The notes below the pieces were generated by a model, which ran no database searches, was not told the DNA's origin, and was given only the letters and a program-made list of their open reading frames with translations. A program made the position numbers and the translations under genes. Below, one piece after another: positions 4,090 to 50,534 of a DNA stretch of 64,000 bases; within the stretch, counting starts at the first letter, position 1, and every line of letters starts with the position of its first letter. The stretch is from a virus (lineage: Duplodnaviria > Heunggongvirae > Uroviricota > Caudoviricetes): positions 70,607 to 134,606 of IMG/VR virus record IMGVR_UViG_3300029288_000054; one strand, written 5' to 3'.

Positions 4090-4914
4090 TTAGACGCTGA
4101 ACAAATAAGGGTATTGTTCGAATATCCAATCTTCAGCTACACGGTATTGATGATGCTTGTGGAAATTATTTTGTACTTGTGGTGTGTGGTTATTATATAA
4201 TTCTGGTGAAAGCCTAATAATAATTTTATCTAACTCGTCGAGGTCGTTAAACGTAAATATGCCGCCTGCGTCGAAATATCGTTCGATATTCTTCGTACCC
4301 CAATAAATCGGGATAGTCCCCACTGCAAAACAATCTATCAGTTTCTCTGTAAAGTAGTCATCAAATTTCGAATTCTCCACTACTATAGAGAACATGAAAT
4401 CAATTAATGCATCTTCTTTATATTGTGTCGCTCGGTATTGTGGTCCGAATGGAGATATACATGGATATCGGCTAATTATTGCGTGGCGTAGTTGATGTCC
4501 AAGTGTCTGAGTCTTATCCGATGCTATAATTGAAACTAATTGTCGCTTTAGGTGAATGCCGACAGTGTGTTGGCGTGCACGCTGATCACCTACGCCAGGT
4601 ATCCAGCAACCACCGTATGGATAGAATAGGAATTTCTTATCGTCGACTAACGCTCGGTCATATGTCAGGATATAGTTGAATTGATTTGAATTCTTTTGTA
4701 TGTAGTCATAACTAGCTTGACATATGGCTGGTGGTTCTAATAACCAAGCTATCTTTCTGGCTGCTTGTGTAGAAGCAGCATTATTGAGGTAATGGTCTGT
4801 GAAGAAACAGATATTTTGCGGTGTCCGACACCAATTGAAATATTTTGGCATATTCCATCCACTTGACGAATAGACATGTGCAAAATTTGCGTCATACAAC
4901 CCAATTTGAAGCAT
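4090..4914 (-). CDS. Glycosyltransferase family 10 (alpha-1,3/4-fucosyltransferase-like)
   Basis: GT10 signature FSIVVENSKFDDYFTEKLIDCFAVGTIPIYWG; N-terminal WLLEPP motif. Confidence 0.85.
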   Translation of the reverse strand: MLQIGLYDANFAHVYSSSGWNMPKYFNWCRTPQNICFFTDHYLNNAASTQAARKIAWLLEPPAICQASYDYIQKNSNQFNYILTYDRALVDDKKFLFYPYGGCWIPGVGDQRARQHTVGIHLKRQLVSIIASDKTQTLGHQLRHAIISRYPCISPFGPQYRATQYKEDALIDFMFSIVVENSKFDDYFTEKLIDCFAVGTIPIYWGTKNIERYFDAGGIFTFNDLDELDKIIIRLSPELYNNHTPQVQNNFHKHHQYRVAEDWIFEQYPYLFSV

Positions 4915-4922
4915 TATTATCC

Positions 4923-5549
4923 CTAAATGCGAAACTTCGTCTTAATTCCAACTTCAACATGGACTCTGTTGAACATCTCGTTTGTTATATGATGGGCAGT
5001 TATTATATTATTACTAGCGGTCGGTCGCTCGTCTTCTTTGCCATAGGCAACAAATCGTTTGTCATTTATAATTGGTATCCCACTAGCACGCAGCAGTCCT
5101 CCGACCATTACGTCTTCGGCACCATGCGTGATCGTCATATGCTCAGCTACGATCTGAGCACATCGCCTCGATAATAGATAGCCAGCTCCACCAGAACAGA
5201 ATGAGCCAAAATCGATACCAACGTACTCGCCTTTTGGGCAATATTCCATTAAACGTATTGCTGCTACATAGGTGTCGTCGTCGCATTTAAATAGGTAATC
5301 CCAGTCATCTCGCTCTAATGCCCATTTACAAAACCATCTTGTTCGTTGCGGTAACGTTTCGTAGGAATCAGGACACGGTAACAATAGTGCGTGCCCATAA
5401 AGTTCTGGTGTAGATAATTTCTCAACGCCGAACAGCAACATTGATGGAATGCCAAGCAAATCGCAATCTGCCATCCATGTTCGCAGACAATTGTTTCGGC
5501 GATCAGGAGTTTTCCATCCAGCGGATGCACCAATTAGATAGCGTACCAT
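4923..5549 (-). CDS. Glycosyltransferase family 31 (Fringe/beta-1,3-galactosyltransferase-like)
   Basis: GT31 motifs DYLFKCDDDTYV, FCSGGAGYLLS and AEDVMVG, with a C-terminal H. Confidence 0.85.
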   Translation of the reverse strand: MVRYLIGASAGWKTPDRRNNCLRTWMADCDLLGIPSMLLFGVEKLSTPELYGHALLLPCPDSYETLPQRTRWFCKWALERDDWDYLFKCDDDTYVAAIRLMEYCPKGEYVGIDFGSFCSGGAGYLLSRRCAQIVAEHMTITHGAEDVMVGGLLRASGIPIINDKRFVAYGKEDERPTASNNIITAHHITNEMFNRVHVEVGIKTKFRI

Positions 5550-5610
5550 AGATTGTCAAAGATACTCAGGGAATTAAGTATAATGCCGTTCGAATTCCAA
5601 GGAGCTGATC

Positions 5611-7785: not shown

Positions 7786-8879
7786 TGGACGATTTGCCAA
7801 AGCGCGTCCTGTACCTAGACGATGAAAGATCTGATATGGAAAACGTCATAAATCTTAATGAATCATTTGGCAACATTTATGCCGGTAAGATCGAGATAAT
7901 CGTCAAGGACAGGCATGGGCGAGTGCTTGAGCATATGTGCGATCACAACATCGTCAAGATCGGGGCCAAAGAGATACTGGCGCACCGTTTGCCTTACGAG
8001 AAGATCTGGGACCCGAATGCAAGCAGCGGAGCCGGTGCTTGGGTAGCTAGCGGACTCAATGCTGCTGATTACGCACCGAAGTATATTATTTTTGGTGCTT
8101 CGTTCGATCCTGTTACTCTCGCTGCGCTCGACACGATGGACCCGCGATATTATACAACAGACCCGATTACGGGTCTGACGGTGCCGATCACTCTCGGTGT
8201 TGGTGCTGAATATGAGGGTGGCCTCATCAACGCCATTCCACTTTCCGACCCAGGAAGGCCATTGAAGAGGGTCGAACAGATTTATTACCAGGCGACATAT
8301 CAGCCTGCTGGAACGCCGTTAATGCAAGATGATGTTCGTGCGATGAACAACATTGTCGTATTCGAGACAACTCTTACTAAGGATGAGTACAACGGATTCG
8401 GTCTGACCGATACCGACTATTTCACCATAACCGAAGTTGCATTGGCTGGCGGTAAAGAGCTAGGTAATGACGATGTGGGCCAGTGCGAATGCGACCCGAA
8501 AACTCTATTCTTACAGGGTAAACCTGATGGGACACCTATAACTGTTAATGCTAGCGGCACCTCGACAGTTTCTATTGCCGTTCAAGATTTACCGTATTCC
8601 GATGTCGTTAATGTTGGCGACCAGATCAAGTTGGTTGCAGCTAATGGCTCGGTGCTATCGCAAATCAACGACCACTATTTGGTGACATCCAAATTGATCG
8701 GTGGCAGTGATATTGGGTTAGACCGAACACCAGTTGATCAAAACGGTGACCCAATTATCGGCACAATAGGGATGTTTAGAGACTCGCTACGAATCTTCTC
8801 TCATCGCATCCTAAAGACGCCATTCAAGAAGTCCACAGATTTCATGATCGTCGTGCGTTGGTCGATCATAATGAACTGA
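7785..8879 (+). CDS. Putative tail/baseplate structural protein
   Basis: GKIEIIVKD...HNIVKIGAKEILA...VFETTL...ITEVAL...FSHR...KSTDFMIVVRWSI pattern resembles phage tail-collar/baseplate proteins. Start at 7785 (TAATG) or 7836; the track start at 7638 is unlikely. Confidence 0.65.
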   Translation: MDDLPKRVLYLDDERSDMENVINLNESFGNIYAGKIEIIVKDRHGRVLEHMCDHNIVKIGAKEILAHRLPYEKIWDPNASSGAGAWVASGLNAADYAPKYIIFGASFDPVTLAALDTMDPRYYTTDPITGLTVPITLGVGAEYEGGLINAIPLSDPGRPLKRVEQIYYQATYQPAGTPLMQDDVRAMNNIVVFETTLTKDEYNGFGLTDTDYFTITEVALAGGKELGNDDVGQCECDPKTLFLQGKPDGTPITVNASGTSTVSIAVQDLPYSDVVNVGDQIKLVAANGSVLSQINDHYLVTSKLIGGSDIGLDRTPVDQNGDPIIGTIGMFRDSLRIFSHRILKTPFKKSTDFMIVVRWSIIMN

Positions 8880-9001
8880 TCGACAAAAGTGATCTTGCAA
8901 GCGGAGGCATGTTGTGTTTTAATATGCATTACAAGATCCGCCACTGGCTGCATCGACGACTTTCGTCGGTCTGGCTGCTCTTTCATTCATGGAGGGACCT
9001 G

Positions 9002-9517
9002 ATGAAGAAGGAGATGCAACGAGAGCCTGCTCAAAGTAATTGCAAAACCTATAAAAATCTCATCCAATCAATTCCTGCTAGCATCCGCTTTGTTTCCGGT
9101 CGCGATTTCCGACAAATTACAACAATAGAACGCGACAGCTTCAAATATCCCTGGACTACTAAAGATCTTCATTCTAAGCTGTGCGAAGATCACGTCGTTT
9201 GCTACGTCGTCGAGCATAATGGATTTATTGTGGCGTATGCCATAATTCAATATTACAAAGACCACATTGAATTATGTAATCTGGCTGTCGATAGTCATTA
9301 TCGCCGACGCAAAATAGCTTCTCTCATTATCAATATGCTCAAGATCAAGGCGTATCTTGAGGCTAAGGAATATATCTCGGCGTACGTAAGCGAATATAAT
9401 CTAGAGGCCCAGCTATTCCTCGGTAATAAAGATAATGGATTTGTCGCCAAGGAGGTGTTACGAGATTTTTATTCTGATGGGCATAGCGCATATTATATGG
9501 AATTTAGCCTTGTTTAG
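9002..9517 (+). CDS. rimI: RimI-like GNAT N-acetyltransferase
   Basis: IERDSFKYPWT...NLAVDSHYRRRKIA...VSEYNLEAQLF...GF...VLRDFY...AYYM. GGAGG RBS before ATG 9002. Confidence 0.75.
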   Translation: MKKEMQREPAQSNCKTYKNLIQSIPASIRFVSGRDFRQITTIERDSFKYPWTTKDLHSKLCEDHVVCYVVEHNGFIVAYAIIQYYKDHIELCNLAVDSHYRRRKIASLIINMLKIKAYLEAKEYISAYVSEYNLEAQLFLGNKDNGFVAKEVLRDFYSDGHSAYYMEFSLV

Positions 9518-9785: not shown

Positions 9786-9787
9786 TC

Positions 9788-11782: not shown

Positions 11783-14700
11783 ATGATACCAGCCACAGGA
11801 TCAATATTTTTCCGAGATGACTATGGCACGTTGTATTGGACTGAGTGGGAGACACTAAATGTAGACGGCATCAACATAGTGGATTATACCACTATTACGA
11901 AGATGCCGTACGTTTGGGGCGATATGCGAACCTACGATATTAGGTTCGTCGTCAACAATTCTTCGGCCACCGTTCGTGTGCAGGCTCCGAATGCTGATGC
12001 AGCCGAACAGATCATCTATGCCAGATATTATTGTTTCCAGGTCGTAATAATGTCGGTCACTGAAGTCGATATGGGAATCGACTACGGTAGGATCGATATG
12101 GACACGAAAAATGTCTATCGACGCGGTATCTGTACGGTAGAACGGCAAATTATCGAACCAAGTGCACTTGGATATATCGGATACATAATCGCTGAGAACA
12201 ATTCGCAATCTAAGTGCTATTTCAAGACAAGTTTTAATTGCAGTATCGCGCCGACAGATCGGTTCAGATATCACATGGACAACGCTGTATCTGGCAATGA
12301 ATCTTCGCCAGTCTTAGTTGGTCCGAGATTTACATGTCCAGGTGATTCCGATTTTGCATGCGTTTTCCAATGGGTGCTGCCTGATGGTAGCCTGCGGCCA
12401 GTTTGTGATAAAGAATCATTCTGGTTTGTTGATGTGTGGGGTCCAGACACTCTAATTTTATTGTCGCCAGCACCGTGCTTATCGCCATCGCTTTCACCAT
12501 CGATGTCGCCCTCGCTTAGTCCGTCGCTATCGCTATCACCATCTGCTAGCTTGTCGTTATCGTTGAGTCCGTCATTGTCGAGATCTTTAAGCCCATCGGT
12601 TTCGAGGTCTCCAAGTCCATCACTCTCGCTGTCACCATCAACTTCTAGATCACCGTCGTTATCAATTTCGCCATCTCTATCAGTATCGCTTTCGCCATCA
12701 ACCTCTAGATCGTTATCACCTTCAGCGTCAGTATCCGCATGGCGGTCCTTCTCAGTGTCGCCATCAATGCTGTCGCCGTCGCTTTCGCCGTCGCCTTCAC
12801 TCAGTAGGTCACCATCTGTAAGTTTGTCACCTTCAACCTCGTTATCTGTTTCGCCCTCGCCATCGGTATCACCATCGATCAGCTTATCGCCATCAGCTTC
12901 TAAGTCGTTGTCGCCTTCGATATCCATATCTCCATCAACAAGTATATCATTTTCACCATCAACTTCATTATCGCCATCTACTAGTATATCGCAGTCACCC
13001 AGTACGTCGTTTTCACCATCTCCGTCGTTATCACCGTCTAGAAGTGTTTCACCGTCGCCATCTACATCGACATCACCGGAGCCGTCCCCAGATCCAACAT
13101 CGCATGACTATGAAGACCCGCGTGTCGCATCTTCAAATGATGGAAGATTTGCAATCACTTGGATGGATATGACAAGCTCGTCAAATCCGATAGTTATGGC
13201 ACAAGCTTTTAGTGCTGCCGGAACGCCAGTCTCAGTGCAGTTTGTTGTCCCGAGTTATGGTAATCCATTAAGTAAGAATCCTGCTATTGTTATGGCCGAT
13301 GACGGCTCATTCTTTGTAGTAGTTTGGGTCGGTCCTGATAACGACTTCACGGGATGGAATGTTTGCGGTCGCATGTATACTGCTAATGGTATTCCGATGG
13401 GCGACCAGTTCCGTATTAGTGCTTTAGCGGATGCCGCGTGTTATACGCCATCTGTTGGTATTCGGCGTTATACTAGAGACTTTGTTGTTGTATGGTCCGA
13501 ATACTACAACATCAGCACAAATAACCCAGGTGTGCGCGTTTACGGGCAGCGTTTTAATTCTAGTGCCACAAAACAAGGTGGACAGTTCCAAATCTCACCG
13601 AACACCGGTGCCGACAGCAGCTATGGTTGGTTCCATAAATACCATCCAGATGTCGATGTTGCCGATAATGGCGATTTTGTCGTTGTTTGGGATGACGATT
13701 GGCGATCTGGCCAGAGCACGTTCTTGATTTATGGTATTCGCTTCAACGCTTCTGGTAGTCAGCTTGGGAATGAGTTCCAAATCTGCCAAAATCCGTCTAT
13801 GATGGACAGCGATGACTATATGATGCCGAGAGTGTCGGTTGCTGCTGATGGAAGGTTTGTAGTCGCATGGCATAAATATCAGGACGCTAGTGGATTCGGT
13901 GTTTATGCTCGATGTTTTAATGCTGGTGGTGGTGCAACGACAAATGAATTCATAGTAAACCAACATCAAACAAGCTATCAGTATTATCCGGATGTTGGAT
14001 GCGATAGAGCTGGTAACTTTACAATCGCATGGCATAGCTACAATAATCCCGATGATCCCATTACGACAGATTATGGTATTATTGCACGTCAGTTTAATGC
14101 TGCTGGCGGTGCGACGACAGATGAATATTGTGTTAACAACCCATATCTATCACATCGCGGCATTGGACATCAATATAACCCTGCTGTCGACCGCAAGTGC
14201 GGTAGTGGCCGATGGGTCACAGCTTGGTGGGGCTATCGAGGTGGAGCACCCTCTGGTGGCATATTAGGAATATGGCATGCGGAGAATGCAGGCAACCCAT
14301 TACCAGCAGTCACATGGGCATTGTCGGCTCCTACCTCAGGCACATACGGACAGGGTACATTAATCACTGGCGATTGGACTGGTAAGCACTGGAAGTCTGC
14401 TGGTTTTTATGAACCTACTACGTCCAGCTTCTTTTTAAGAAATTCGAATACATCAGGTAGAGCCGATATAGGTCTCAGTTATGGTCCTGGCAATTGGAAA
14501 CCGATAGCTGGCGATTGGACGAATAAGGGCTATGATAGCATCGGCTTGTATAATCCTGCAAATGCTACGTTTTATCTAAGAAATTCGAACACAAGCGGTG
14601 TTGCTGATACTTCGTTCGGATATGGTGGTGCTGGAAATAACTGGACGCCGATAGCTGGTGATTGGACAAATAAAGGTTACGACAGCATCGGCTTGTATAA

Positions 14701-15334
14701 TCCTGCAACTTCAACTTGGTATCTGCGAAATTCGAACACGGGCGGCGTAGCCGATATCACGTTCATTTTTGGTACACCTAATGTTGGCTGGCTACCGATC
14801 ATAGGAGATTGGAACGGCGATGGTGTCGATACAGTCGGCTTATACGATCCAGCGACATCAACGTTTCACTTGCGGAATTCGAATTCTGCTGGTGGTGACG
14901 ACATAACGTTTGTGTTCGGTACGCCGAGTTCTTGGAAGCCTGTTGCTGGTGACTGGAATGAGAAGGGCTACGATAGCGTCGGCTTATATGATTATTCTAC
15001 TGCGACATTCCACTTACGGAATTCAAACTCCGCTGGTAGCGACGACATAAGTTATCTTTACAGATGTGCAATACGAATTGCCTGGGACGGGTACGGCATG
15101 CAGAATGGTTATACTGTATGCTTGGGAGTTGCACCGGGCACAGACTTCACCAATGTCAGATGGGTTTCAATTGGTGCTATCCCTGCAATTAATGGTGGAG
15201 ATATGTGGTATTGGGATAGGTGTGATACTAATGGTACGCCTATCCCGGCGGGGACCTGGTATGTTTGTGGATATGTATGGGACGGGGCCAACCCGCATTA
15301 TAACCACGCTAGCACGTCGTTCGTTATCAGCTAA
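11783..15334 (+). CDS. Large modular surface/virion protein: N-terminal domain, Ser/Pro tract, (E/Q)F-x-(I/V) repeats and GDWnGDG (FG-GAP/VCBS-like) repeats
   Basis: About 210-aa S/P tract; about six repeats of type EFxVN...P-x-V-x-x-x-x-x-G-x-F-x-(I/V)-x-W; five repeats PIAGDW-x-x-x-G-x-D-x-(I/V)GLY-x-P...F-x-LRNSN. Confidence 0.8.
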   Translation: MIPATGSIFFRDDYGTLYWTEWETLNVDGINIVDYTTITKMPYVWGDMRTYDIRFVVNNSSATVRVQAPNADAAEQIIYARYYCFQVVIMSVTEVDMGIDYGRIDMDTKNVYRRGICTVERQIIEPSALGYIGYIIAENNSQSKCYFKTSFNCSIAPTDRFRYHMDNAVSGNESSPVLVGPRFTCPGDSDFACVFQWVLPDGSLRPVCDKESFWFVDVWGPDTLILLSPAPCLSPSLSPSMSPSLSPSLSLSPSASLSLSLSPSLSRSLSPSVSRSPSPSLSLSPSTSRSPSLSISPSLSVSLSPSTSRSLSPSASVSAWRSFSVSPSMLSPSLSPSPSLSRSPSVSLSPSTSLSVSPSPSVSPSISLSPSASKSLSPSISISPSTSISFSPSTSLSPSTSISQSPSTSFSPSPSLSPSRSVSPSPSTSTSPEPSPDPTSHDYEDPRVASSNDGRFAITWMDMTSSSNPIVMAQAFSAAGTPVSVQFVVPSYGNPLSKNPAIVMADDGSFFVVVWVGPDNDFTGWNVCGRMYTANGIPMGDQFRISALADAACYTPSVGIRRYTRDFVVVWSEYYNISTNNPGVRVYGQRFNSSATKQGGQFQISPNTGADSSYGWFHKYHPDVDVADNGDFVVVWDDDWRSGQSTFLIYGIRFNASGSQLGNEFQICQNPSMMDSDDYMMPRVSVAADGRFVVAWHKYQDASGFGVYARCFNAGGGATTNEFIVNQHQTSYQYYPDVGCDRAGNFTIAWHSYNNPDDPITTDYGIIARQFNAAGGATTDEYCVNNPYLSHRGIGHQYNPAVDRKCGSGRWVTAWWGYRGGAPSGGILGIWHAENAGNPLPAVTWALSAPTSGTYGQGTLITGDWTGKHWKSAGFYEPTTSSFFLRNSNTSGRADIGLSYGPGNWKPIAGDWTNKGYDSIGLYNPANATFYLRNSNTSGVADTSFGYGGAGNNWTPIAGDWTNKGYDSIGLYNPATSTWYLRNSNTGGVADITFIFGTPNVGWLPIIGDWNGDGVDTVGLYDPATSTFHLRNSNSAGGDDITFVFGTPSSWKPVAGDWNEKGYDSVGLYDYSTATFHLRNSNSAGSDDISYLYRCAIRIAWDGYGMQNGYTVCLGVAPGTDFTNVRWVSIGAIPAINGGDMWYWDRCDTNGTPIPAGTWYVCGYVWDGANPHYNHASTSFVIS
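12464..13096 (+). repeat. Ser/Pro-rich (SPSLSLSPS) coding low-complexity tract
   Basis: Direct translation; degenerate 4-6 aa units. Confidence 0.9.
14360..15055 (+). repeat. Five ~48-aa GDW...LRNSN coding repeats
   Basis: Direct translation. Repeats 2 and 3 are near-identical in DNA, with mostly synonymous differences in their first halves. Confidence 0.85.
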
Positions 15335-23126: not shown

Positions 23127-23200
23127 TCTTCCTTCATCGTATCTACCAACCACTTATCTTTCATAGGCAAACATATAACGAACAAACGCATAGAGATCTC

Positions 23201-34756: not shown

Positions 34757-35035
34757 ATGAATACAATATATGACACCAGGATAAATTATGCCAGCGGTGG
34801 GGTTGTATGGACTTTCGACATGCCATTCGAACATCCTCCAGTGGTGTGTATAGGAGTGCAGCTAAATAACCTGCCTGACAGCATATATCCCATATCGCAC
34901 AAAATTGTTAGTTTGACAGCAACATCGGTGACGATCAAGGTCTATAAGGTTGAATTGACGGATCTTAGAGACCTTCTCTTTAGTGAGTGTGCGACCAATG
35001 ATGTCGTCGTTCACATAACGGCTGAGGGAGAATAA
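34757..35035 (+). CDS. Small beta-sandwich-type protein leading the collagen cassette; paralogous to an insert in the baseplate protein
   Basis: GGVVWTF..PF..PP.V.IG.QL.NLPDSIY.IS.KI...T...VTIKVYK...L.FSEC.T.DVVV.I matches the minus-strand segment at ~19092-19330. Confidence 0.75.
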
Positions 35036-38000: not shown

Positions 38001-41000
38001 TTGGTATGTGTATTATCTAGCTACGATTGGCGAGATCGTGTTGATCGAGTCGAATGCTGTAGCAGAAAGCCGTATCGATACTTGGTTGTCCGGCGTGCAT
38101 TATGGTGTTGGTACGAGAGTATCACACTCATATGTTTATGCTTGTGTTAGCAGCCACGTGTCATACGATTTTGATACCGATCTGGCAGCCGGTCGATGGA
38201 TTCAGGTCGATTCGGACGGTCTTGCGACTTTAGATGGCGTTCCTGTTTATGTGCCATCTGGTGATTACAAGGGACATCGCTGGCTCGGCACTATCGTCAT
38301 GGACGATAACGCTGGGACGCCGGTTTATAATCCTGACCGTTTGACGAATTTTTATAATCTTATTGAGCGGCGCAGAGATGGTGAGCAGGTAACAATCAGC
38401 GGCGAGCAAGTTGGAATCGGTTTGTATAATCCAACGGCTCGTCTGCACATCAAAGCAGGTGAGGCAGCACCGGGCGGGGCACCTCTCAAGTTAACGACTG
38501 GCGATGTGCTAGCTGTTCCGGAGCCAGGAGCAGTCGAGTTCATTAGAGACGACGTTTATTTCACCATTACTACAGATGGAGCTAGAAAAGGCTTCGTGTT
38601 GAATGATGGTACTCGTCTTACTCCAAACAGAATACCGTTTGCTGGAACACGTGGTCGCCTAGTTGACAGCACAGGGCTATCATATAGTGCTGCTGATGGG
38701 CTACAAGTCAACGGTGTCCACTCCCAAACGGATCAAGACTTGTTACTTGATGCTTGGGGTACTAACAAGCATGTCATCATTAGCAATCTGAGATTCCCGA
38801 ACACTGACGGTACTACAGGTCAAGTGTTGGTGACTGATGGCTTGCGGCATCTGTCGTGGTCGTCAAATGGCGTATTCGGTGCAACTGGACCCATTGGACT
38901 TACTGGTGCTACTGGTCCTTCTGGCGGACCAGTTGGTGCTACTGGTTCAACTGGACCGGTCGGTTCGGTTGGCCCAATCGGGCCTCGTGGTGCCACTGGT
39001 TTAGGTGCTACTGGCTCTACTGGTCCGGTTGGAGCGTCCGGGCCTGCCGGTGGACCGATTGGAGCAACCGGTGAAGCTGGTCCAGTTGGTGCTACCGGTT
39101 TCACAGGACCGAGAGGTTCTACTGGTATCGGCGACATTGGCTCAACTGGAGCAACTGGTGTTCCAGGTTCTACTGGTCCTTCTGGCGGTCCTGTTGGTGC
39201 AACTGGAGCAACAGGTTTCACCGGCGAAACTGGTGCTACTGGACCTGCTGGTGGTCCTACTGGAGCAACTGGAGCAACTGGTATTGGTCTAACAGGCTCC
39301 ACAGGTGCATACGGCTCTACTGGTGCAACTGGTCTTTCCGGTGCTACTGGTCCTGGTGGAGGACCGACCGGTGCGACCGGTCCTACTGGCGCAATCGGTG
39401 CGACCGGTATGGGTGCCTCAGGTTCGGGTGCTGAAGGTGCTACTGGTCCAGCAGGACAGCCTGGTGCTACTGGTCCAAGTGGTGGCGAACCAGGTGCAAC
39501 TGGCACACATGGTGCGACAGGTGCAACTGGCTGGACCGGCTTTACAGGTGCGACTGGTGCGACTGGTATAGGTATCACTGGTTTACCAGGTGCCAGCGGT
39601 GCAATAGGTGCAACAGGCACACATGGGTCTACTGGCCCTTCTGGTGGTCCAATTGGTGCAACCGGTACACAAGGGTCAAGCGGTATCAGTGGCTCAACCG
39701 GTTATTCTGGTGCTACTGGTGCCACAGGCGTGAGCGTCACTGGTCCTCCTGGTGCTACTGGTCCTTCTGGCGGTCCTGTTGGTGCGACAGGTGCAACCGG
39801 AACTGCTGGCGGTACCGGTGCCACGGGCTGGGGTGGTGCCACAGGCACAAGAGGTGCAACAGGTGCGATTGGCCTGACCGGTTCTACTGGCCTTTCTGGC
39901 GCTAGTGGCATTGGTGCAACAGGTCCACTTGGCCCTATTGGTTCATCTGGTGCGACGGGCTTCATTGGTGCTACTGGTCTTCCTGGTGCATCAGGCCCAT
40001 ATGGTGGCCCAATTGGTGCAACTGGCCCATCTGGTGCTAGCGGTGCTACCGGCTTCGATGGTGCAACCGGATTCACTGGTGCTACCGGATTAGCTGGTTC
40101 AACAGGTGTCGACGGTGCTTCGGGTGCTTCTGGCGCAACAGGTGTTCAGGGAGCAAGCGGTACTCAAGGAGCAAGTGGCTTAGCTGGTGCTACGGGCATC
40201 GGGGCTTCTGGTGCAACAGGTATTGATGGGGCGACAGGCTCAACTGGTCCTATTGGCTTGACTGGAGCAACAGGTATCGACGGAGCTAGCGGCGCTTCTG
40301 GAGCTACAGGCGTTCAAGGAGCAAGCGGCATTGGTGCTTCAGGCGTTCAAGGCGCATCAGGCTTGACCGGATATACCGGTCTTACTGGCTCAACCGGACC
40401 ACAAGGCGCTACTGGTGCTGGCCTCACTGGTGCTACAGGTATCGACGGTGCATCTGGTGCGACTGGGGTACAAGGATCAACAGGCCCGCAGGGTGCGACT
40501 GGACCTGGTGCTTCAGGTGCAACTGGTATTGGTGCTTCTGGTGCGACAGGCTACACTGGTTTTCAAGGCGACCCAGGCCCTCAAGGTGCTAGCGGTGCAA
40601 CAGGCGTCCAAGGTGCTTCTGGTATTGGTGCCACTGGTCTTGAGGGAGCGTCTGGTGCTTCCGGCGCAACTGGTGTTCAAGGAGCAAGTGGTGCTGAAGG
40701 TGCTACAGGGGCAGGAGCCACTGGAGTAGACGGAGCTTCTGGTGCTACAGGCATCGGAGCTACTGGTCCTCAAGGTGCGACTGGACCAGGAGCTACAGGC
40801 ATTGATGGTGCCTCTGGTGCAACAGGCGCAGATGGAGCGACCGGCCCTCAAGGTTCGACAGGACCAGAGGGAGCAACTGGACCCGGAGCTACTGGTATTG
40901 ATGGGGCTTCTGGTGCCACTGGCGTGCAAGGCGCTTCTGGTATCTCTGGTGCATCTGGTACTATTGGAGTTGACGGTGCATCTGGACCAACTGGTTCTAC

Positions 41001-42885
41001 TGGCCCGATCGGTGCGACCGGCATTGGGGCTTCTGGTGCTACTGGCTTTGAGGGAGCATCTGGCGTTGTCGGTGCTTCAGGCCCTCAAGGTGCTACCGGT
41101 ATTGATGGTGCAACCGGCCCTGTTGGTGCTTCCGGTGCTATCGGGGTTATCGGCACGCCGACTATTGGTGATTACACTAGTGGTCTATTTCCGTGGACGC
41201 CGACAACACTTATAGCAGATGCCGAACAGTCTGTGAATGAATTCATGGCAGCACTAGCACCACCATTAGCACCGGAGTTCAGCATGTATGACGGCACGCA
41301 GCTTGGTGTTACCGGCAAGATGAGCTATGATGCTTCGCATATCATAACTGACATCTACGGTGTTGACGGCATCGGCAATCTCACCGCCGTAAATGTTGAT
41401 GAAGCCTTCACAGCAGCGGCATTGACTGGAATGCGAAGAGGCATATTCAGTGCTTCTACAACAACCTTTACTGGCAAGCTTGCTTCCAATGTTCAGCAAG
41501 GCACTGGTGATCCGACACCGGCATATCCGGCTTACGCTTTCAAGGATGGCGATGAAGGCACGTTGGATCTATACATCAACACCGACGCTGCTCCAACTTA
41601 TAGCCTCGACCTCGCTGCCAACCAAGGCTCTGGCACTTATGTTAATGGCGATGGCAGTGGATTTGTGCTGACTGCTGTTACGAGCGAGAAATTCCCGAAC
41701 GGGACTGACTTCACACTATTCAAGTACCGCACTGGCACGTGGGTCGTCGGCGGTAACGATTTGCGAGAAGGTTGGAACTACATTCGCATCACCCACACTG
41801 TCGGCACCAGCAGGCCAGTAGTCAACCTTTATCTCGACTTCGTTCGTGATTTGAATACGACTGCTACAGCTTTCAGCAGCGAATCGATGTCGGGATTCAG
41901 CGGAACAGGCAGTAAGTACCTGTCAGGCGTTGAATTCTACACTGGTGGGTCTGCCACCTACAACAACACCGTTGATAACCTCTACCGGAACACGTATTAT
42001 TCTGGTAGCGATGCATTGGCTTACACGGTCACTAATGCCCAAGCGATTGCCAGCGATACTTTGGCTACCGGTGCTGGTGATGAAGCCAAACAAGTTGTTA
42101 TTAGTAAGACTGCTCATCTCATTGCTTCTGGTACACGATTGATTAGCCAGTCTATGACCGTGAGAACTGTTGCTAAACGGACGGTCCAGACACAACAAAC
42201 TTCAACCGGCGCATCAATCAGCGGAATCTTGTTGGATAACGTAGCAGCAACATCAACTATCACCTTGGAGGGATTTGATGATGAGAACTACCGGTTACCG
42301 TCCGGCAGTGATTTTGATTCTTCCAGCACGGCTGTAACTGGCTCTTGGGATTCCACAATTTCGCTGGTTGATAGTGGATCTTATCCCGATGGTTTGCAAG
42401 AGATAACTAGCCAACTAGTTTATCCGGTGGCGGATTACTCAATCATCCCGAATGGTCCGCCGTCGAACGTCAATTACTCAACAGGAGTGAGTGGCGCTAG
42501 GACATATTACCGATTCTTCGATATGTCGCCAACTGGTCGATCCAATTTCATGATCTCTGTGAATGGAGCTGGCACGATCAGAGCTAATAGCTACAGCATG
42601 ACTAATGGCTCTGATGATCTGAAAGTCGATATCAAGCTGCCCAATGGCAGTGCGGAAGGTACTGGCTGGTTAGATGTGACAGCATTATTTATCAGTGGAA
42701 ACTGGGCTGACGGCGATGGATGTTTGTTGGGTGGAACGTTTGCAATGAATACGCCATTGCAAGCACTCACTGTTGGCACGAAAAATACAGCGGCGACATC
42801 GGTTAATGGCAAGGTCTTTATTCGAATTCGAGTGCCACAGGCGTGGACCGGGAATTTGACGAGCATCACTTTCGCTGGAGTTTAA
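35035..42885 (+). CDS. Giant collagen-like tail fibre/appendage protein (2616 aa): pectin-lyase-type beta-helix, two discoidin (F5/8C) + CBM5/12-like units, collagen rod, C-terminal domain
   Basis: YTSIQEAIN...[16 protein letters not shown] followed by N-rich GIxL repeats; W.AF...YDF...NKY...P..(F/W)...GSN...LD...AYR.Y(K/R) twice; W..G..Y.VG.RV.H..Y.C...H...DF.TDLA.GRW twice; FP..DG..GQVL.TDG...L.W twice; about 760 aa of G-X-Y at ~38878-41155. Confidence 0.85.
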
Positions 42886-42886: not shown

Positions 42887-44380
42887 ATGGCGTTGTCAAC
42901 CGATACAATGGCCCAGATGGCGTTGAAATTCCTACTCGGGAAGAGCGACACCAATTATGCACAAAAGGGTCCGAATAACGAGGCCGAGGCGTATAATCTT
43001 ATTATCGCTGCATCTAAGGTCTGGGTCGATATTATACCGACTACGCCACCTGCTCACGATACAGCTATAGTTTCATGTCTTGATGGCGGTTCTGGCAACT
43101 ATGCCAAAGCTGATCTTGTTGCAGATCCAACATCTAACGGCCAGGCATTCTTTGCAGTTTATCCCACTGGCCATCCGAATGTTGGCGAACGAGTTAAGAA
43201 CGCAATCGCACCGAATTATGGCACCGGATATGAAGCACAGTTGTATGCCGGTGCTACATTAATTGGTGGTGGTGATGCAAGAAATTGGATTTATCAATAT
43301 GAATCTGGCGTGCTATTCCAGCAGACCGCTAGTGCATCACCAACACCAACAACAATTAAGCTTTACGTTTATATTGGTGAAACGCTTGCCAGTAAAATCG
43401 CTTCAGGTCTATTGACTGGTGCCACAGGAGCTACAGGTGTCGCCGGAGCGACTGGACCTGTTGGGGCCACAGGTATCGCAGGTGCATCTGGAACGATTGG
43501 TCTCGACGGTGCTTCAGGTGCAACTGGTGTTCAGGGCGCTTCAGGCATCGATGGTGCTTCTGGTTACATTGGCGTCGATGGAGCGTCTGGTGCGACCGGC
43601 CCAATAGGTGCCACTGGCTTAGGTGCTTCTGGTGCCACAGGTGCAGACGGTGCCACAGGGCCGGTTGGTGCTACTGGGCCTATCGGAGCAACCGGTGTTG
43701 ACGGAGCATCAGGTGCCTCGGGAGCTACAGGAGTTCAAGGTGCCTCTGGCGTAATAGGTGTTGATGGAGCATCCGGAGCATCAGGAGCCACAGGTGTTCA
43801 AGGTGCTAGCGGTATCGGTGCTACCGGTATCGACGGTGCCTCTGGAGCTACCGGAGCAACTGGTGTACAGGGTGCATCAGGTCCAACGGGGATTGATGGT
43901 GCTTCTGGTGCCACAGGACCAGTAGGTGCTACCGGTGCAGGTGAGCCTGGTGCGACTGGTTCTATTGGCCCAGATGGTGCATCTGGTGCGACCGGCCCAG
44001 TAGGCGCTACCGGTATTGCTGACTTCATTACCGGAACATTTACTAATGACGATCTAGTTGGTACGATTTTAACGATCACACATACCAGAGGTAATGTAAT
44101 ATTGCCCTTCATAGTAAGCGATGATGACGGCAATAATATAGCATTCGATACGACGGCAGTCATATTTAGCAACAATCAAATTACTATCGATTTTACTGGC
44201 TTTGGGGCGTTGGTTGGGACCTGGAAGTATGCTTTTGGTGGTTCAAGTGCACCGGGTGCAACAGGACCCGCTCCATCTGGGTTGAGCGGCACTAAGATTT
44301 ATTACGTTGCTGATACGAGCGGTGGTTCGCCAACTAGGAAGTTGACTTTCATCAACGGTATCTTGGTGTCCGAAACGTAA
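42887..44380 (+). CDS. Collagen-like fibre protein (497 aa)
   Basis: Globular N-domain, about 200-aa GAT/GAS rod, GTFTNDDL...WKYAFGGSS module, C-terminal LTF.NGIL motif. Confidence 0.85.
43757..43858 (+). repeat. 102-bp exact direct repeat, copy 1 (copy 2 at 45115-45216)
   Basis: GGTGTTGATGGAGCATCCGG...GGAGCTACCGGAGCA is identical in two different collagen genes. Confidence 0.85.
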
Positions 44381-44430: not shown

Positions 44431-46035
44431 ATGAACTTCCTGAAGTATAGAAATATCAAGCTTGACACCGCACCAACCAACAATCCACCGGCTGGTACGA
44501 TTTATGAGTGGCACACTACCGTAGGTACGGAGGTGTTTGTCCACTATCGCCTACCAGACGGAACGGACGTAACCGGCAACATCAGTGGTGCCACCGGTGC
44601 GACTGGTGTGCCCGGTGCTACTGGTATTTCTGGGGCCACCGGCGTTGATGGTGCTTCAGGTGCTACAGGAGCAGACGGAGCCACTGGCTTAACAGGTGCC
44701 ACTGGTATTTCTGGAGCTACTGGTGTTGACGGAGCTTCAGGAGCCACAGGCGTTCAAGGTGCTTCTGGTATTGCTGGGGCTACTGGTGTTGACGGAGCTT
44801 CAGGTGCGACCGGAGCTGATGGTGCTACGGGCCTAACCGGTGCTACAGGCATCGACGGGGCAAGTGGTGCATCAGGGGCTACTGGCGTACAGGGTGCTTC
44901 TGGTATCGGTGCTACCGGTATCGACGGAGCTTCAGGTGCGACTGGTGCAGATGGAGCCACCGGTTTAACTGGAGCTACAGGAATTGATGGGGCTAGCGGT
45001 GCTTCAGGCGCAACTGGCGTTCAGGGTGCCTCAGGTATCGCAGGAGCAACCGGTGTTGACGGAGCATCAGGTGCGACTGGTGCAGATGGAGCCACCGGTT
45101 TAACAGGTGCCACTGGTGTTGATGGAGCATCCGGAGCATCAGGAGCCACAGGTGTTCAAGGTGCTAGCGGTATCGGTGCTACCGGTATCGACGGTGCCTC
45201 TGGAGCTACCGGAGCAGACGGAGCATCTGGTCTTACTGGTGCTACCGGTATTGACGGTGCTTCTGGTGCTACGGGCGTTCAAGGCGCTTCTGGTATTGGT
45301 GCTACAGGCATCGACGGTGCCTCTGGAGCTACCGGAGCAGACGGAGCATCTGGTCTTACTGGTGCTACCGGTATTGACGGAGCTTCCGGTATCGGTGCGA
45401 CCGGTATTGACGGAGCCTCTGGTGCTACTGGTGCTCAAGGCTCAACAGGACCTATTGGTGCAACTGGTGTCACAGAGTACATCGAAGGTACGTTCACCAA
45501 TGACGATCTGGTTGTCGGGGCAACCGGCCTCTTAACAATCAGCCACACCAAGGGTAATGTCGCGTTGCCATTCATTATCACCGACAACAATGGTGATAAT
45601 GTGACGGTTGATTCGACTGCCGTTAGATTCGCCAATAACCAGATCACGGTCGATCTATACAATAATGGTGCGATTGCTGGAACCTGGAAGTATGCCTTTG
45701 GTGGTTCTTCTGATTCGTACAACATCCAGGGGATTAATCCACAAATAGGTACCACCTACGAACTAGCCATTGGCGATGCCGGTAAGATGGTCACCCTGAC
45801 AAATGCTAATCCAATTACTGTTACTATACCAGCCAGTGGTACAGTAGGCTTCTTGCTTGGTACACGCATTGACCTAGTTCAAGGCGGAGCTGGAAAGGTA
45901 ACAGTTGCCGGTGCATCTGGCGTCGTCGTTAATTCGAAGGCAAGCAATAAGTCAATAGCTGCCACTAATGTGGAGGTCACTCTCAAGAAAGAGGCTACCG
46001 ACACTTGGTATCTGTTCGGTGACTTGATTGCCTAA
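44431..46035 (+). CDS. Collagen-like fibre protein (534 aa)
   Basis: About 300-aa GAT/GAS rod, GTFTNDDL module and a C-terminal YEL...DAGK.V...N...ITVTIP...F..GT.I...Q.GAG.VTV...W.L.GDL domain typical of phage fibres. GAGG RBS. Confidence 0.88.
45115..45216 (+). repeat. 102-bp exact direct repeat, copy 2
   Basis: Identical to 43757-43858. In addition, 45174-45224 is identical to 46655-46705. Confidence 0.85.
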
Positions 46036-46181: not shown

Positions 46182-49100
46182 ATGGATTTCGTAAAATTTC
46201 AAAGCATCAAGTTATCAGATGCACCCGCCCAGGGCGATAATCCACCTCCGGGGGTAGTCTACGAATGGGCTACTGTTGTCGGAACTGATGTTTTGACCCA
46301 TTATCGTCATTCTGATGGAACCGATGTTATAGAGAGTGTCGACGGAGCTACCGGTGCGACTGGGGCTGACGGTGCTTCTGGATTAACTGGTGCGACTGGA
46401 ATCGGTGGGGCTACTGGTATAACGGGATCTTCAGGGGCAGAGGGGGCCACAGGTTTAACCGGTGCTACTGGTATAGGTGCTTCAGGTGCTACTGGGGCTG
46501 ATGGAGCCACGGGCTTAACTGGTGCTACCGGTGCTGGTATCGATGGAGCCACTGGTCTTTCTGGTGCTAGCGGTGCTACTGGTATAGGTGCATCGGGAGC
46601 TACTGGGGCTGACGGAGCCACAGGCCCGCAGGGTGCTACCGGCGTTGGGATTGACGGTGCTACCGGTATCGACGGTGCCTCTGGAGCTACCGGAGCAGAC
46701 GGAGCCACTGGCTTAATCGGTGCCACAGGCTTAACCGGTGCCACAGGTCTTGGTGCTTCTGGTGCAACTGGGTCCGCTGGTGTCGATGGTGCTACCGGTA
46801 TCAACGGTGCCTCTGGAGCCACTGGGACTCAGGGTGCTTCTGGTGCCATCGGAGCAACGGGAGCTGGTATCGACGGGGCTACTGGTGTCGACGGGGCATC
46901 TGGAGCCACCGGTGCCGATGGTGCAACGGGATTAACAGGAGCCACCGGAGCTGGTATAGACGGGGCCACAGGTGTAGACGGGGCCTCTGGGGCTACAGGA
47001 ACAGACGGAGCATCGGGAGCGACTGGTACCCAGGGTGCATCCGGGGCTATCGGAGCCACTGGTGTTGGGATCGACGGCGCTACAGGCCCACAGGGTATTG
47101 ATGGGGCTTCAGGTGCCACAGGCGTCCAAGGTGCTAGCGGTGCTATCGGAGCCACTGGTGTTGGGATCGATGGTTCTACTGGCGTCGATGGGGCGTCTGG
47201 TGCTACAGGAGTAGACGGAGCATCAGGTGCCACAGGTACACAAGGAGCTTCAGGTACTGCCGGTGCTACTGGCACTGGTCTTGATGGTGCATCTGGTGCC
47301 ACAGGTATACAGGGAGCTTCAGGCCCTCAAGGCGAAACTGGTGGAGCATCTGGTCCTGCTGGTTCTACTGGTCCTGTCGGCGTTGACGGTGCTTCTGGTA
47401 CTGTTGGAGCGACAGGTGCTACTGGTGCTGGTATTGATGGTGCATCCGGCCCACAAGGTATCGATGGAGCTTCAGGTGCAACCGGTGTACAAGGAGCTTC
47501 TGGTACTGCTGGTGCGACTGGTGCTGGTGTCGACGGTGCTTCTGGAATTGCAGGGTCAACCGGTCTTGATGGTGCATCTGGTGCTACAGGCCCACAAGGT
47601 GAAACTGGTGGAGCATCTGGTCCTTCAGGTGCCACTGGTGCTACCGGTTCAGAGGGTGTTTCTGGTGCAACAGGTACAGTAGGTGCGTCAGGCCCTGGTA
47701 CTGCAGATGGTGCCTATAATTCCGGCACAACGACTGCTACTGGCCAGATGACATCGATGACAGAACCAGCACCTTATGAGGTGATTGTTAGCTCTACTGG
47801 TATCATCTATAAGGAAATAGACAACGATTATTTATATGGTTGGTATGCTTTCGACCAGATAACGCGATCGATTGGTTGGGGTGTTTGTATTGGTGGTTCC
47901 GGATACACACCAGGCGATCCGTTCGAAACAGCGATGTGGGTGATATACGACTTTAGTGATGGACAGAAGAAAGTCATTAACAAGTATGCATTCTATGCAA
48001 GAATACTCAATACAGCATTGCCACGCGATTGGACGTTATCAGGTTCCAATGATAATTCAAATTGGACGGTGCTTGATGCGAGAACGGGAGTTGAACCACC
48101 TGGCTCGACAGTAACATGGTCTGATTACTTCACATTCTATAACAGTGTAGCCTATCGCTACTACAAGATCGACGTAACCAAATGTACATATCCATACTAT
48201 CATCAATATAACAGTGTGCCATATTGGTTTGCGGAAATCGGCCAGCTAAAACTTGTCGAATATCCGATGGTTTATGGTGCGACTGGATATACCGGCGCGA
48301 CTGGATACACCGGTGCTACTGGTATTCAAGGTGAAACTGGCGGAGCATCTGGTCCTTCAGGTGCCACAGGTGCTACAGGCATTGGAGCCACAGGCCCACA
48401 AGGTGCCACTGGTGCTGGTGTCACTGGAGCTACTGGCCCAACGGGTGCTACAGGTATCCAAGGTGAAACAGGTGGAGCATCTGGACCTGAAGGTCCCACA
48501 GGAGCATCTGGAGTTCAAGGCGCAACAGGTATCCGTGGCGCTTCAGGTGCTTCAGGCGCAACAGGACCTGAAGGACAAATCGGTGCTACAGGCATTCAGG
48601 GCGAGACTGGCGGTGCATCTGGGCCTTCTGGAGCTTCGGGTGCTTCAGGGGCAACGGGTGTTCAAGGTGCTTCAGGATCTATTGGCGCTACCGGTCTCGG
48701 TGCTTCTGGGGCTACTGGACTTACTGGTGCCACCGGCGTACAAGGCCAGACAGGTACCGGTGTTAATGGTGCAACAGGATCAACAGGACCTGTTGGGGCA
48801 ACTGGTGAAACAGGCTCTACAGGTCCGCAAGGAGAAACAGGCGGAGCATCAGGCCCTGTCGGTGCTTCGGGACCGCAAGGTGAAACCGGAGCTACCGGTC
48901 CTGTCGGTTTAAATGGTGCTTCTGGATCGACTGGTCCTGTTGGTGCTTCGGGTGCTACTGGCCTCACTGGTGCTAGTGGTGTCGGCTTAACTGGTGCGAC
49001 AGGACCAGGTGCTACTGGCCTTACCGGCGCAACAGGTGTAACAGGCTCATCAGGCCCGCAAGGTGAAACTGGTGGAGCATCAGGACCTGCTGGAGCATCT

Positions 49101-50534
49101 GGAGCTACCGGCACTTCCGGTTTATCTGGTGCGACCGGTTCTACAGGCATTCAAGGTGCAACAGGCATCCGTGGAGCATCTGGTGTTGGTGCCACTGGAG
49201 CAACTGGTGTTGCTGGGGCCACAGGCCCCAGCCAAGGGCCTGTTGGTGCCACCGGTTACACTGGCCCGACAGGATCAACAGGTCCTGCTGGTGCCACAGG
49301 CATCAGAGGAGCAAGTGGTGCTTCTGGTACAGACGGTGCTACCGGTTATACTGGTGCTACAGGTATTCAAGGTGAGACTGGTGGAGCATCTGGTCCGCAA
49401 GGCGTTGATGGTGCCACAGGCCCTCAAGGCGAAACTGGTGGAGCATCTGGTCCTGCTGGTTCTACTGGTATTTCTGGTGCGACTGGTGCAACAGGTCTCT
49501 CCGGCTCGGCTGGTGCGACAGGCTCGACAGGACCGCAGGGCGTACAGGGTGCATCTGGAGTACAAGGAGAACAGGGTGCTTCTGGCGTTCAAGGTGCTTC
49601 TGGTGATCTTGGTTTAACTGGTTCCACAGGCCCAGAAGGTGCTACTGGAATTGGTGCCACCGGAATGGTTGGTGCCACTGGTGCTTCTGGTGCAACCGGT
49701 CCAGAAGGATCGACGGGTCCGGTCGGAGCGTCTGGCCCGCAAGGCGAGACTGGCGGTGCGTCTGGCCCAGTTGGAGCTACAGGCCCGCAAGGTGAAACTG
49801 GCGGTGCATCTGGTCCAGTTGGTTCAACTGGCCCGCAAGGTGAAACTGGTGGTGCTTCTGGTCCAGTTGGTTCAACTGGTGCTACTGGCATCGAAGGAGC
49901 AACAGGCGTAGCTGGTGCGACCGGTATTGACGGTGCTAGCGGTGCTTCTGGTGCCACAGGCGTTCAAGGTGCTTCGGGATTAACTGGTGCAACAGGATCT
50001 GTAGGATTGACAGGAGCTACCGGAAGCACCGGTATTAGAGGAGCAAGTGGTGCATCAGTAACAGGTGCATCTGGTGCATCTGGTGCAACAGGATTCATCG
50101 GTGCAACTGGTGTTGTCGGCTTATCAGGAGCAACAGGATCGACCGGCCCACAAGGTGCGACAGGAGCAGGCTTAACCGGGTCTACCGGAATTGAAGGTGC
50201 TACCGGCGCGACTGGATTAGCTATCGATGGTGCTACTGGTTATACTGGCGCTACTGGATATACCGGTGCAACTGGAATTCAAGGTGACACAGGCGGTGCA
50301 TCTGGTCCAGTTGGTCCAACTGGCTCCACTGGCCCTGGAGGCGGTGATCCTGGTGCGACTGGACCCGCTGGAATCGATGGAGCATCTGGACTTGATGGAG
50401 CATCTGGGACAGCTGGAGCATCGGGTATAGCTGGAGCAACAGGACCGTCGACACTCCCAGAAACACCAGTCACAGATGGTGACTATATATTAAGAGTGAC
50501 TGACGGCGTTGCGGCTTGGATGATTCCGACCTAA
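46182..50534 (+). CDS. Collagen-like fibre protein (1450 aa) with a central discoidin (F5/8C) domain
   Basis: Two G-X-Y rods (~46340-47700 and ~48277-50450) flank a discoidin-like domain; short C-terminal DGDY.L.V..G...W motif. Confidence 0.88.

Follow-up and report, generated by a model that had tools for sequence, protein, structure and literature searches.

The 64,000-nucleotide stretch analysed here (the window) comprises bases 70,607-134,606 of the 388,105-bp IMG/VR record IMGVR_UViG_3300029288_000054 (99% complete, 47% GC). The record derives from an uncultured T4-like jumbo phage of 388 kb, and the window contains two adjacent glycosyltransferase (GT) genes, of families GT10 and GT31, together with long collagen-like and Ser/Pro-rich proteins. 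A first-pass annotation of the window had proposed that the pair belongs to a phage-encoded O-glycosylation system for such proteins. This idea is partly supported, on grounds other than those first given. The whole genome (G000) encodes about a dozen sugar-transferring enzymes, including a homologue of the GT27 polypeptide N-acetylgalactosamine (GalNAc) transferases that adjoins fibre genes with Ser/Thr/Pro-rich stalks, and the phage therefore probably sugar-coats its own fibre proteins. The window itself gave zero megablast matches to GenBank phages. The two adjacent GT genes are (window coordinates):

4090..4914, minus strand: GT10 (alpha-1,3/4-fucosyltransferase-like), 274 residues, soluble, GT-B fold
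4923..5549, minus strand: GT31 (beta-1,3-Gal/GlcNAc-transferase-like), 208 residues, soluble, GT-A fold

Both family assignments, already made in the first-pass annotation, are borne out by Pfam matches above threshold and by the agreement of profile searches, AlphaFold2 (AF2) models compared by Foldseek, and sequence motifs. The GT10 protein matches Glyco_transf_10 (PF00852) at 1.4e-8 (35 bits; cut-off 23.9), and a profile of 32 GT10-like relatives recovers the H. pylori alpha1,3-fucosyltransferase 2NZW (4e-15), FUT9 (4.5e-7) and plant FucTA. Its AF2 model has a predicted local distance difference test score (pLDDT) of 95.8, with H. pylori fucosyltransferase 2NZX/2NZW and FUT9 as best structural matches. 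The protein has the C-terminal donor-binding motif FSIVVENS..DYFTEK; across the family alignment, E180, N181, E190 and K191 vary little or not at all. Transfer of fucose from GDP-fucose would have indirect support from the GMD and Fcl-like enzymes encoded elsewhere in the genome; another 6-deoxy sugar donor is possible, since GT10-like genes of other phages have DegT and dehydratase neighbours.

The GT31 protein matches Galactosyl_T (PF01762) at 8.3e-11 (42.5 bits; cut-off 23). A profile of 31 GT31-like relatives recovers Drosophila C1GalT1 (7Q4I, 8e-15) and also B3GALT6, B3GNT2 and B3GLCT, and the AF2 model (pLDDT 97.0) aligns by Foldseek to B3GALT6, C1GalT1 and B3GNT2 with template modelling (TM) scores of 0.73-0.79. 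The DDD and ED motifs are kept, D90, D91, D92, E145 and D146 being invariant in the family. Solved GT31 relatives with differing acceptors score similarly in both comparisons, and core-1 specificity is not singled out; PBCV-1 A64R is no more than a distant fold match to the GT31-like model. The named cellular relatives of the protein are all Planctomycetes (Blastopirellula, Bremerella, Pirellulales), which may be a weak hint to the origin of the gene or to the host.

A search of the remaining genome for a priming GT and nucleotide-sugar genes, none of the former being visible in the window, located a GT27 homologue as well as GalE, GMD and Fcl. The GT27-like gene is the last in a cluster of five on one strand, with gaps of at most 9 nt (coordinates of the complete record, G000:C1):

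278970-281771: fibre gene with an SP tract, same strand as the whole cluster
281779-284580: PT/SP-tract paralogue of the preceding fibre gene, same strand
284510-286450: GT2, 646 residues, same strand, no PDB match
286450-287091: MptE-like gene, same strand
287101-288609: GT27-like protein with MptE/Maf-like domain, 502 residues, assigned from PDB sequence matches and motifs

All 16 PDB matches of the single GT27-like sequence are polypeptide GalNAc-transferases or a related 'Glycosyl transferase' entry, and the alignment to human GalNAc-T2 (1.3e-46) spans the whole catalytic domain. With a profile of 25 family members, 16 sequences are matched at 4.5e-69 to 3e-45, the next being chondroitin synthase at 2e-10. 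The catalytic motifs DAH at 84-86 (DxH), WGCENIE at 178-184 (WGxENxE) and H206 are conserved in 21 of the 25 members. A DxH instead of a DxD motif marks GT27 and GT60, the two families of polypeptide Ser/Thr O-glycosyltransferases (PMC7185993). The C-terminal 220 residues are MptE/Maf-like (weak Pfam match, 2.5e-6) and replace the ricin lectin domain; PF01973 is precomputed on most homologues. Neither a ricin-type lectin domain nor a type-II membrane anchor was found in the protein, which has no hydrophobic segment, and it therefore represents a GT27-like catalytic domain in a new architecture and not a canonical GALNT. As PDB profile searches recovered no Maf-type structure for the MptE-like domains by sequence, the MptE/Maf assignment remains weak. 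With two Ser/Thr/Pro-tract fibre genes directly upstream, the enzyme is a candidate for the transfer of GalNAc to polypeptide Ser/Thr.

The GT27-like family is rare, with 59 members in the protein collection (mostly from large contigs) and 11 IMG/VR contigs, and those IMG/VR contigs of this lineage in which the gene is present show the same order from fibre genes to GT27. Pattern-based scans, which may undercount, found no homologue among 50,697 deposited GenBank phage genomes and only three pattern-level relatives (in metagenome-assembled genomes) among about 185,000 prokaryote species genomes.

Related phages were chosen by capsid, and 22 related records were searched, six of them at least 90% complete. 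They include a close subclade from one metagenome (G001, complete, 364 kb; G002-G005, fragments) and distant relatives with complete genomes (G006, G007 and G010-G012). All seven close relatives with an intact GT27 gene and readable upstream DNA have Ser/Thr tracts and/or collagen in the fibre genes; L332 (57% GT27 identity), which ends 6.5 kb upstream so that its fibre genes are unreadable, was left out of the seven. G001 and other close relatives also have the GT2 and/or the MptE-like gene of the cluster. In G006 and L334 (33% identity) the GT27 domain is degenerate, with DxH changed to KDK and the C-terminal His to Val; the cluster GT2 and the MptE-like gene are both missing there, and the fibre homologue either carries a poly-Pro linker or is without a tract. 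These degenerate genes are nonetheless retained (L333:3288-4721 in G006; L334:9860-11410), and by analogy with COSMC, which serves C1GALT1, their products may be pseudo-enzymes or scaffolds. Orthologous fibre proteins (278970-284580 and those of L325-L331) carry different stalks at the same position, namely SPSLS-type, TTTPxP-type, collagen or poly-Pro, with the stalks acting as interchangeable spacer modules.

The remaining GTs follow a similar distribution. Among the genomes compared, GT10, GT11, GT25, GT31, FkbM and the GT4-like protein with a methyltransferase domain are confined to G000 and G001. Collagen amounts to 3,120 residues in G000, 2,019 in G001, 330 in G010 and about 0-57 in G006, and Ser/Thr-tract proteins number five in G000 and four in G001. 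The linear 354-kb record of G006 begins and ends with collagen-model matches on one strand (C1:4-120; 353946-354083), which points to a circularly permuted genome in which a single collagen gene runs across the record ends, some 3 kb from the degenerate GT27. The phyletic pattern is coherent but corresponds to about one evolutionary event.

Candidate acceptors are found both beside the GT27-like gene and in the window, where the following genes encode long tracts or collagen:

11783..15334, plus strand: 1183-residue protein with a 213-residue SPSLS tract (residues 234-446, from translation) followed by repeat domains; candidate acceptor
16896..23153, minus strand: 2085-residue clade-conserved protein with a 77-residue SP tract (residues 1680-1756, from translation); candidate acceptor
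35035..42885, plus strand: 2616-residue fibre protein with 654 residues of strict collagen (about 650-710) and a PHROG tail-fibre match
42887..44380, plus strand: 497-residue collagen protein with 195 residues of collagen (triplet runs)
44431..46035, plus strand: 534-residue collagen protein with 288 residues of collagen (triplet runs)
46182..50534, plus strand: 1450-residue collagen protein with 1032 residues of strict collagen (about 1030-1110; triplet runs)

The two long Ser/Pro tracts had been correctly recognised at first reading. Of the 110 Ser/Thr sites in the SPSLS tract, 88 have a Pro at -1, +1 or +3, and the protein has no hydrophobic segment; over the five tracts of the genome, 290 of 365 Ser/Thr residues (79%) are flanked by Pro in this way. 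Pro-flanked Ser/Thr is the context favoured by GALNT enzymes. The 2085-residue protein has orthologues in G001, G006 and G010. Searches of PHROG, Pfam and PDB returned no match for the two Ser/Pro-tract proteins, for the unannotated genes next to the GT pair, or for the first 900 residues of the 2616-residue collagen protein; a structural role of the two tract proteins and of the GT-pair neighbours is therefore only putative. No membrane-like segment was found in any GT or candidate acceptor.

Collagen was counted in Gly-X-Y runs of at least six triplets (strict) or at least three (loose). The four collagen genes of the window together hold 2,169 residues by the strict and 2,310 by the loose count, below the 2,400 or so first estimated; that GAT, GAS and GST are the commonest triplets was correct. 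Outside the window there are four further collagen genes (295.6-304.8 kb) and three further Ser/Thr/Pro-tract genes, bringing the genome to 3,120 residues of collagen in eight proteins with long and uninterrupted Gly-X-Y periodicity; Pfam Collagen matches are seen in relatives. Thr or Ser occupies 59% of Y positions and Ala 46% of X positions, Pro makes up 6.5% of X and Y, and there are six Lys. The peptide (GPT)10 is a random coil and forms a triple helix only once its Thr is galactosylated (PMC11923368), and by analogy it is doubtful that these Pro-poor collagens would form stable triple helices without modification. Collagens of bacteria and viruses contain an anomalously high share of Thr-rich triplets, whose glycosylation has been called an open question (PMC11923368). 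A bacterial precedent is SgtA of C. difficile, encoded beside bclA3, which O-glycosylates Thr of collagen repeats (PMC7157674).

Further sugar-related genes are dispersed over the genome. Those outside the window were found via homology to GT10 neighbours in other phages and then by Pfam and NCBIfam, and represent a targeted set to which more sugar genes may belong (genome coordinates unless the window is named):

205859-206872: GalE (equivalog)
213517-214389: GT2
238975-239664: GT25
239636-240400: GT11
240402-240995: FkbM methyltransferase
269667-271283: GT2 plus HtrL
271697-273439: GT4-like plus methyltransferase
321236-323065: double GT2, with only a weak chondroitin-synthase match in PDB
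377229-378242: GMD (equivalog)
378239-379180: Fcl-like GDP-fucose synthase
Window 8858..9517, plus strand: GNAT acetyltransferase, a possible sugar or protein N/O-acetylase (PF00583, 7.6e-11)
Window 31267..32010, plus strand: KdsB, CMP-Kdo synthetase (Pfam CTP_transf_3, 2.9e-46; NCBIfam, 259 bits against 193)
Window 52943-53677: DNA N6/N4 methylase, not of the sugar type
Window 54605..55189, plus strand: Methyltransf_24 class-I S-adenosylmethionine (SAM) methyltransferase, candidate sugar O-methyltransferase (PF13578, 1.6e-13)

KdsB and two small-molecule methyltransferases had been named earlier as possible suppliers or modifiers of sugars; KdsB is confirmed, and the Methyltransf_24 protein is the one sugar-type methyltransferase found, the second methylase that was tested being the DNA enzyme. 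In four other phage loci, GT10-like genes have a homologue of the Methyltransf_24 protein next to them, and an orthologue of the GNAT gene lies near GT31 in G001. A 377-residue protein with DUF6923 repeats (2.9e-14) and a sub-threshold tachylectin-like match, about 3 kb from the GT pair (window 517-1650, minus strand), is possibly a beta-propeller lectin. The GT2 at 213517-214389 weakly resembles SunS-type peptide S-glycosyltransferases (4e-10, well under the cut-off) and lies about 14 kb from a radical SAM/SPASM enzyme (228029-228850); both are conserved in G001 and may mark a peptide-modification system.

The adjacency of GT10 and GT31, on which the first-pass annotation had relied, is not found in the nearest relatives. 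Within the 22 related records, an orthologue of GT31 occurs only in G001, at the syntenic place and without a GT10 beside it, and GT10 orthologues occur in G001 and G002, where GT10 lies between a GT25 gene and a GT11 plus FkbM pair, far from GT31. That block is syntenic with 231-247 kb of G000, where GT25 abuts GT11 and GT10 is cleanly absent. GT31 of G001 abuts the orthologue of a 575-residue protein gene (window 1711-3438); in G000 the GT10 gene and the following gene are inserted between these two:

Window 3476..4048, minus strand: HNH homing-endonuclease gene, directly downstream of GT10 (phrog_2255, 2.9e-12)

This HNH gene is missing at the corresponding junction of G001. The adjacency is therefore best described as a recent, HNH-associated relocation of GT10, the HNH gene being a likely vehicle or marker of the move. 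Three HNH-type homing endonuclease genes are found in the window (3476-4048, 9788-10408 and 53652-54182), one of which flanks the relocated GT10. The GT pair had been described as lying among structural genes, which the data do not show: its neighbours are the HNH endonuclease, the GNAT protein and unannotated genes, with no recognisable structural module. The gene for the Gp23-type capsid protein is at 382,640-384,280 and those for gp25- and gp6-type baseplate proteins at 355.8-357.5 kb, so that the window is distant from the canonical head and baseplate modules, with the core baseplate and capsid genes about 220-250 kb past its end.

In other phages, the two families occupy nucleotide-sugar islands. 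GT10-like genes are common (935 in the protein collection; at least 593 IMG/VR contigs) and have been found in the Synechococcus phages S-SSM7 and S-SM2 as well as in huge phages of 636-735 kb. Single-protein scans of IMG/VR with GT10 or GT31 were empty, and the counts rest on alignment-based scans. Context was scored for 80 sampled GT10-like loci (neighbours within 10 kb) and for 80 GT31-like loci kept from 82 IMG/VR contigs. The GT10-like loci have SDR-type epimerase/dehydratase genes in 41 cases and DegT aminotransferase genes in 30, besides FkbM methyltransferase, dUTPase and PhoH genes, and neither collagen nor a GT31 homologue in any; GMD accompanies 33 of the GT31-like loci, which also have PhoH and GT2-like neighbours and collagen in three. 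The expected co-occurrence of these GTs with collagens across phages is thus not seen (0/80 and 3/80 loci).

Taken together, we propose that the phage encodes a cytoplasmic, soluble system for O-glycosylation of its own Ser/Thr-rich fibre proteins, in which the GT31 and GT10 enzymes of the window elongate or cap the glycan, and we assign this reading a probability of roughly 0.5. The GT27 cluster and the donor-sugar genes thus strengthen the idea of phage O-glycosylation of Ser/Thr-rich tracts, to which the recent GT10-GT31 adjacency lends no support. The GT27-type enzyme would start the glycan by transferring an N-acetylhexosamine, probably GalNAc, to Ser/Thr of the Ser/Pro/Thr fibre stalks, and might also prime Thr/Ser at the Y position of the (GAT/GAS)n collagens. 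The GT31 enzyme, most like C1GalT1, would then add a beta-1,3-linked sugar, and GT11, GT10 and GT25 would add fucose or galactose. The FkbM and Methyltransf_24 methyltransferases, the GNAT protein and perhaps a Kdo-type sugar activated by KdsB could finish the glycan, with donors supplied by the GalE and GMD plus Fcl of the phage. In its most specific form, this proposal would give a T4-like jumbo phage lineage a eukaryote-style mucin-type pathway, from GT27 through GT31 to GT11/GT10, by which stalks and (Gly-Ala-Thr)n collagens become mucin-like, possibly Lewis- or H-like, and glycosylated Thr replaces hydroxyproline in the triple helix; so specific a scheme seems to us unlikely on present data.

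Several observations weigh against the proposed glycosylation of fibre proteins. The GT27 cluster lies inside a replication module (helicase, SbcD and a split DNA polymerase), so that its conserved order may reflect general synteny among related phages, and the MptE/Maf-like assignments are below the Pfam cut-off. Virion location of the acceptors is assumed from fibre-like architecture and from PHROG matches driven by collagen, and no Ser/Thr-tract or collagen gene lies inside the canonical T4-like structural module. Very few independent lineages underlie the pattern of gain and loss; G001, G006 and G010 all retain GMD, Fcl and the double GT2, and these include relatives with little or no collagen, and GalE is missing from G001. 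The GT10-GT31 pair, being of recent origin, is no conserved unit, and elsewhere both genes reside in nucleotide-sugar islands of the cyanophage 'LPS'-cluster type (LPS, lipopolysaccharide) and not beside collagens. KdsB and GT25, finally, point to LPS-type chemistry.

These last points fit an alternative in which the GTs, the GDP-fucose genes and KdsB alter the LPS, O-antigen or capsule of the host, whether to exclude superinfection, mask receptors or take over metabolism, as has been suggested for T4-like cyanophage clusters, while the collagens and Ser/Pro tracts are unrelated. LPS or O-antigen is the target of the bacterial GT10, GT11, GT25 and GT31 enzymes characterised so far (PMC4202792; Pfam name of PF01755), KdsB makes the donor of an LPS-core sugar, and the phage settings agree, with GT10-like genes in S-SSM7, S-SM2 and huge phages, their epimerase/dehydratase, DegT, FkbM and PhoH neighbours across those at least 593 contigs, and GMD beside GT31-like genes in 33 loci. 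The genome, however, lacks a priming phosphoglycosyl transferase and any flippase, polymerase or ligase: searches of the 99%-complete sequence for PF02397 (phosphoglycosyl transferase), PF00953 (WecA/MraY), PF04932 (Wzy/WaaL) and PF01943 (Wzx) found none, and control genomes were positive. Moreover, no phage GT is membrane-anchored, and the sole recognisable initiating enzyme is of a polypeptide-acting family and clustered with Ser/Thr-tract genes. Since phage GTs could use host lipid-linked intermediates at the cytoplasmic face, remodelling of the host envelope is only weakened by these findings, and we consider it possible, if unlikely.

Roles may also be divided, with the GT27 cluster glycosylating the adjacent fibres, GT31 and GT10 serving a separate glycan pathway (for example one that makes surface sugars of the host or a free oligosaccharide or polysaccharide), and the collagens left unglycosylated. 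GAT-type triplets are common in viral collagens generally (PMC11923368), and PHROG tail-fibre families match the repeats strongly. GT10, GT31 and GT27 are 140-210 kb apart, GT10 usually travels with GT11, GT25 and FkbM, and small collagen genes occur without GT10/GT31 in G010 and probably G006. Such a division is nevertheless quite improbable in our view: GT10, GT11, GT25, GT31, the cluster GT2, the MptE-like gene and an intact GT27 share a single subclade with a massive expansion of collagen and Ser/Thr tracts, and the closest solved relatives of GT31 include the enzyme that extends GalNAc-Ser/Thr.

Glycosylation of hydroxymethylated bases of the phage DNA by one or more of the GT-A enzymes is highly improbable, as we know of no GT27-type DxH enzyme, GT10, GT11 or GDP-fucose pathway in DNA modification, and the genome has no thymidylate-synthase-type hydroxymethylase (controls positive) and no Tet/JBP dioxygenase (a weaker result, since the Tet/JBP controls were silent), even though the GT27 cluster adjoins DNA polymerase and helicase genes. 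Phage GT-A enzymes with an R...DDD...ED signature do glycosylate 5-hydroxymethylcytosine and are often neighbours of polymerase or helicase genes (bioRxiv 10.1101/2023.12.21.572611).

Downstream of the GT27-like gene follow a Volactin-like actin homologue, the split DNA polymerase and a second collagen cluster. The 460-residue Volactin homologue (archaeal actin family, PF25216, 9.6e-42; 288699-290081, equal to L093:17099-18481), located between GT27 and the DNA polymerase, has 55-57% identity to its counterparts in G006 and L334, is better conserved across the clade than its neighbours, and is possibly an actin-like cytoskeletal protein of the phage. The family-B DNA polymerase is encoded in two pieces, an exonuclease part (290091-291494) and a polymerase part (292710-295514), with three small open reading frames (ORFs) between them; in L325 and L327 the polymerase part is split again, with a 567-residue ORF between the pieces in L325, which suggests mobile insertions in the polymerase gene. 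A late-promoter candidate, CAAANWTA, was found upstream of 36 of 517 genes, including several collagen and Ser/Pro-tract genes; GT31/GT10, the GT27 cluster and the capsid gene all lack it, and it offered no basis for an argument on timing.

To our knowledge, mycobacteriophages are so far the only phages in which phage-encoded enzymes have been shown to glycosylate the virion, and we know of no isolated phage of the T4-like jumbo type that sugar-coats its own fibre proteins. Initiation of the polypeptide GalNAc-transferase type is regarded as a eukaryotic trait, and a literature search found no publication that describes, for any phage, a GT27-type enzyme or mucin-type pathway. The animal mucin pathway proceeds from GALNT (GT27) through C1GALT1 (GT31) to FUT1/2 (GT11) and FUT3-9 (GT10). 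The phage has the same four CAZy families with intact motifs, dense Ser/Thr/Pro acceptor-like tracts, and GalE and GMD plus Fcl for UDP-Gal(NAc) and GDP-fucose donors. In contrast to the animal enzymes, those of the phage are short, soluble, without anchor or stem, and predicted to act in the bacterial cytoplasm; the GT27 enzyme carries an MptE/Maf-like domain and not a ricin lectin domain, and GT25, extra GT2, methyltransferases and KdsB are added.

In mycobacteriophages, GTs of the phage glycosylate the virion (Freeman et al. 2023, cited in PMC12619734), acting within the host cytoplasm on structural proteins of the phage itself, as proposed here. The GTs of these small siphoviruses are encoded beside the capsid and tail-tube genes and modify the C-termini of the products, whereas the enzyme set of the present T4-like jumbo phage is far larger and eukaryote-like, and its presumed targets are mucin-like stalks and collagen. 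BclA of B. anthracis and BclA3 of C. difficile share the G-X-Thr collagen repeats, and there the repeat Thr is O-glycosylated directly and a GT gene lies nearby (PMC7157674). SgtA, however, is an O-GlcNAc transferase of another family, encoded directly upstream of its substrate gene (PMC7157674), while no GT abuts the collagen genes of the window, and the repeats here are Gly-Ala-Thr/Ser instead of Gly-Pro-Thr. Cyanophage 'LPS/cell-wall' islands, as in S-SSM7, resemble this genome in a GT10-like gene (31-34% identity) accompanied by SDR dehydratase, aminotransferase and methyltransferase genes, but no deposited phage genome has this GT27-like or GT31-like gene, and the function of those islands is itself only proposed. 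In giant viruses (chloroviruses, and the fibrils of Mimivirus, which also has collagen-like genes), virion proteins receive their glycans from viral GTs and nucleotide-sugar pathways, without recourse to those of the host (PMC9614988); their hosts are eukaryotes, and the GT families and glycans are different.

As virion glycosylation is already known from mycobacteriophages (cited in PMC12619734) and giant viruses (PMC9614988), the new part, if our reading is right, would be initiation of the GT27 type in a phage. Such a system would provide a compact set of soluble enzymes, expressible in E. coli, for mucin-type glycans, and would make glycosylation of Thr-rich bacterial and viral collagens for stability (PMC11923368) directly testable. 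It would also mean that some jumbo phages bear a glycan coat that could affect adsorption, adherence to mucus, and recognition by defence systems or grazers.

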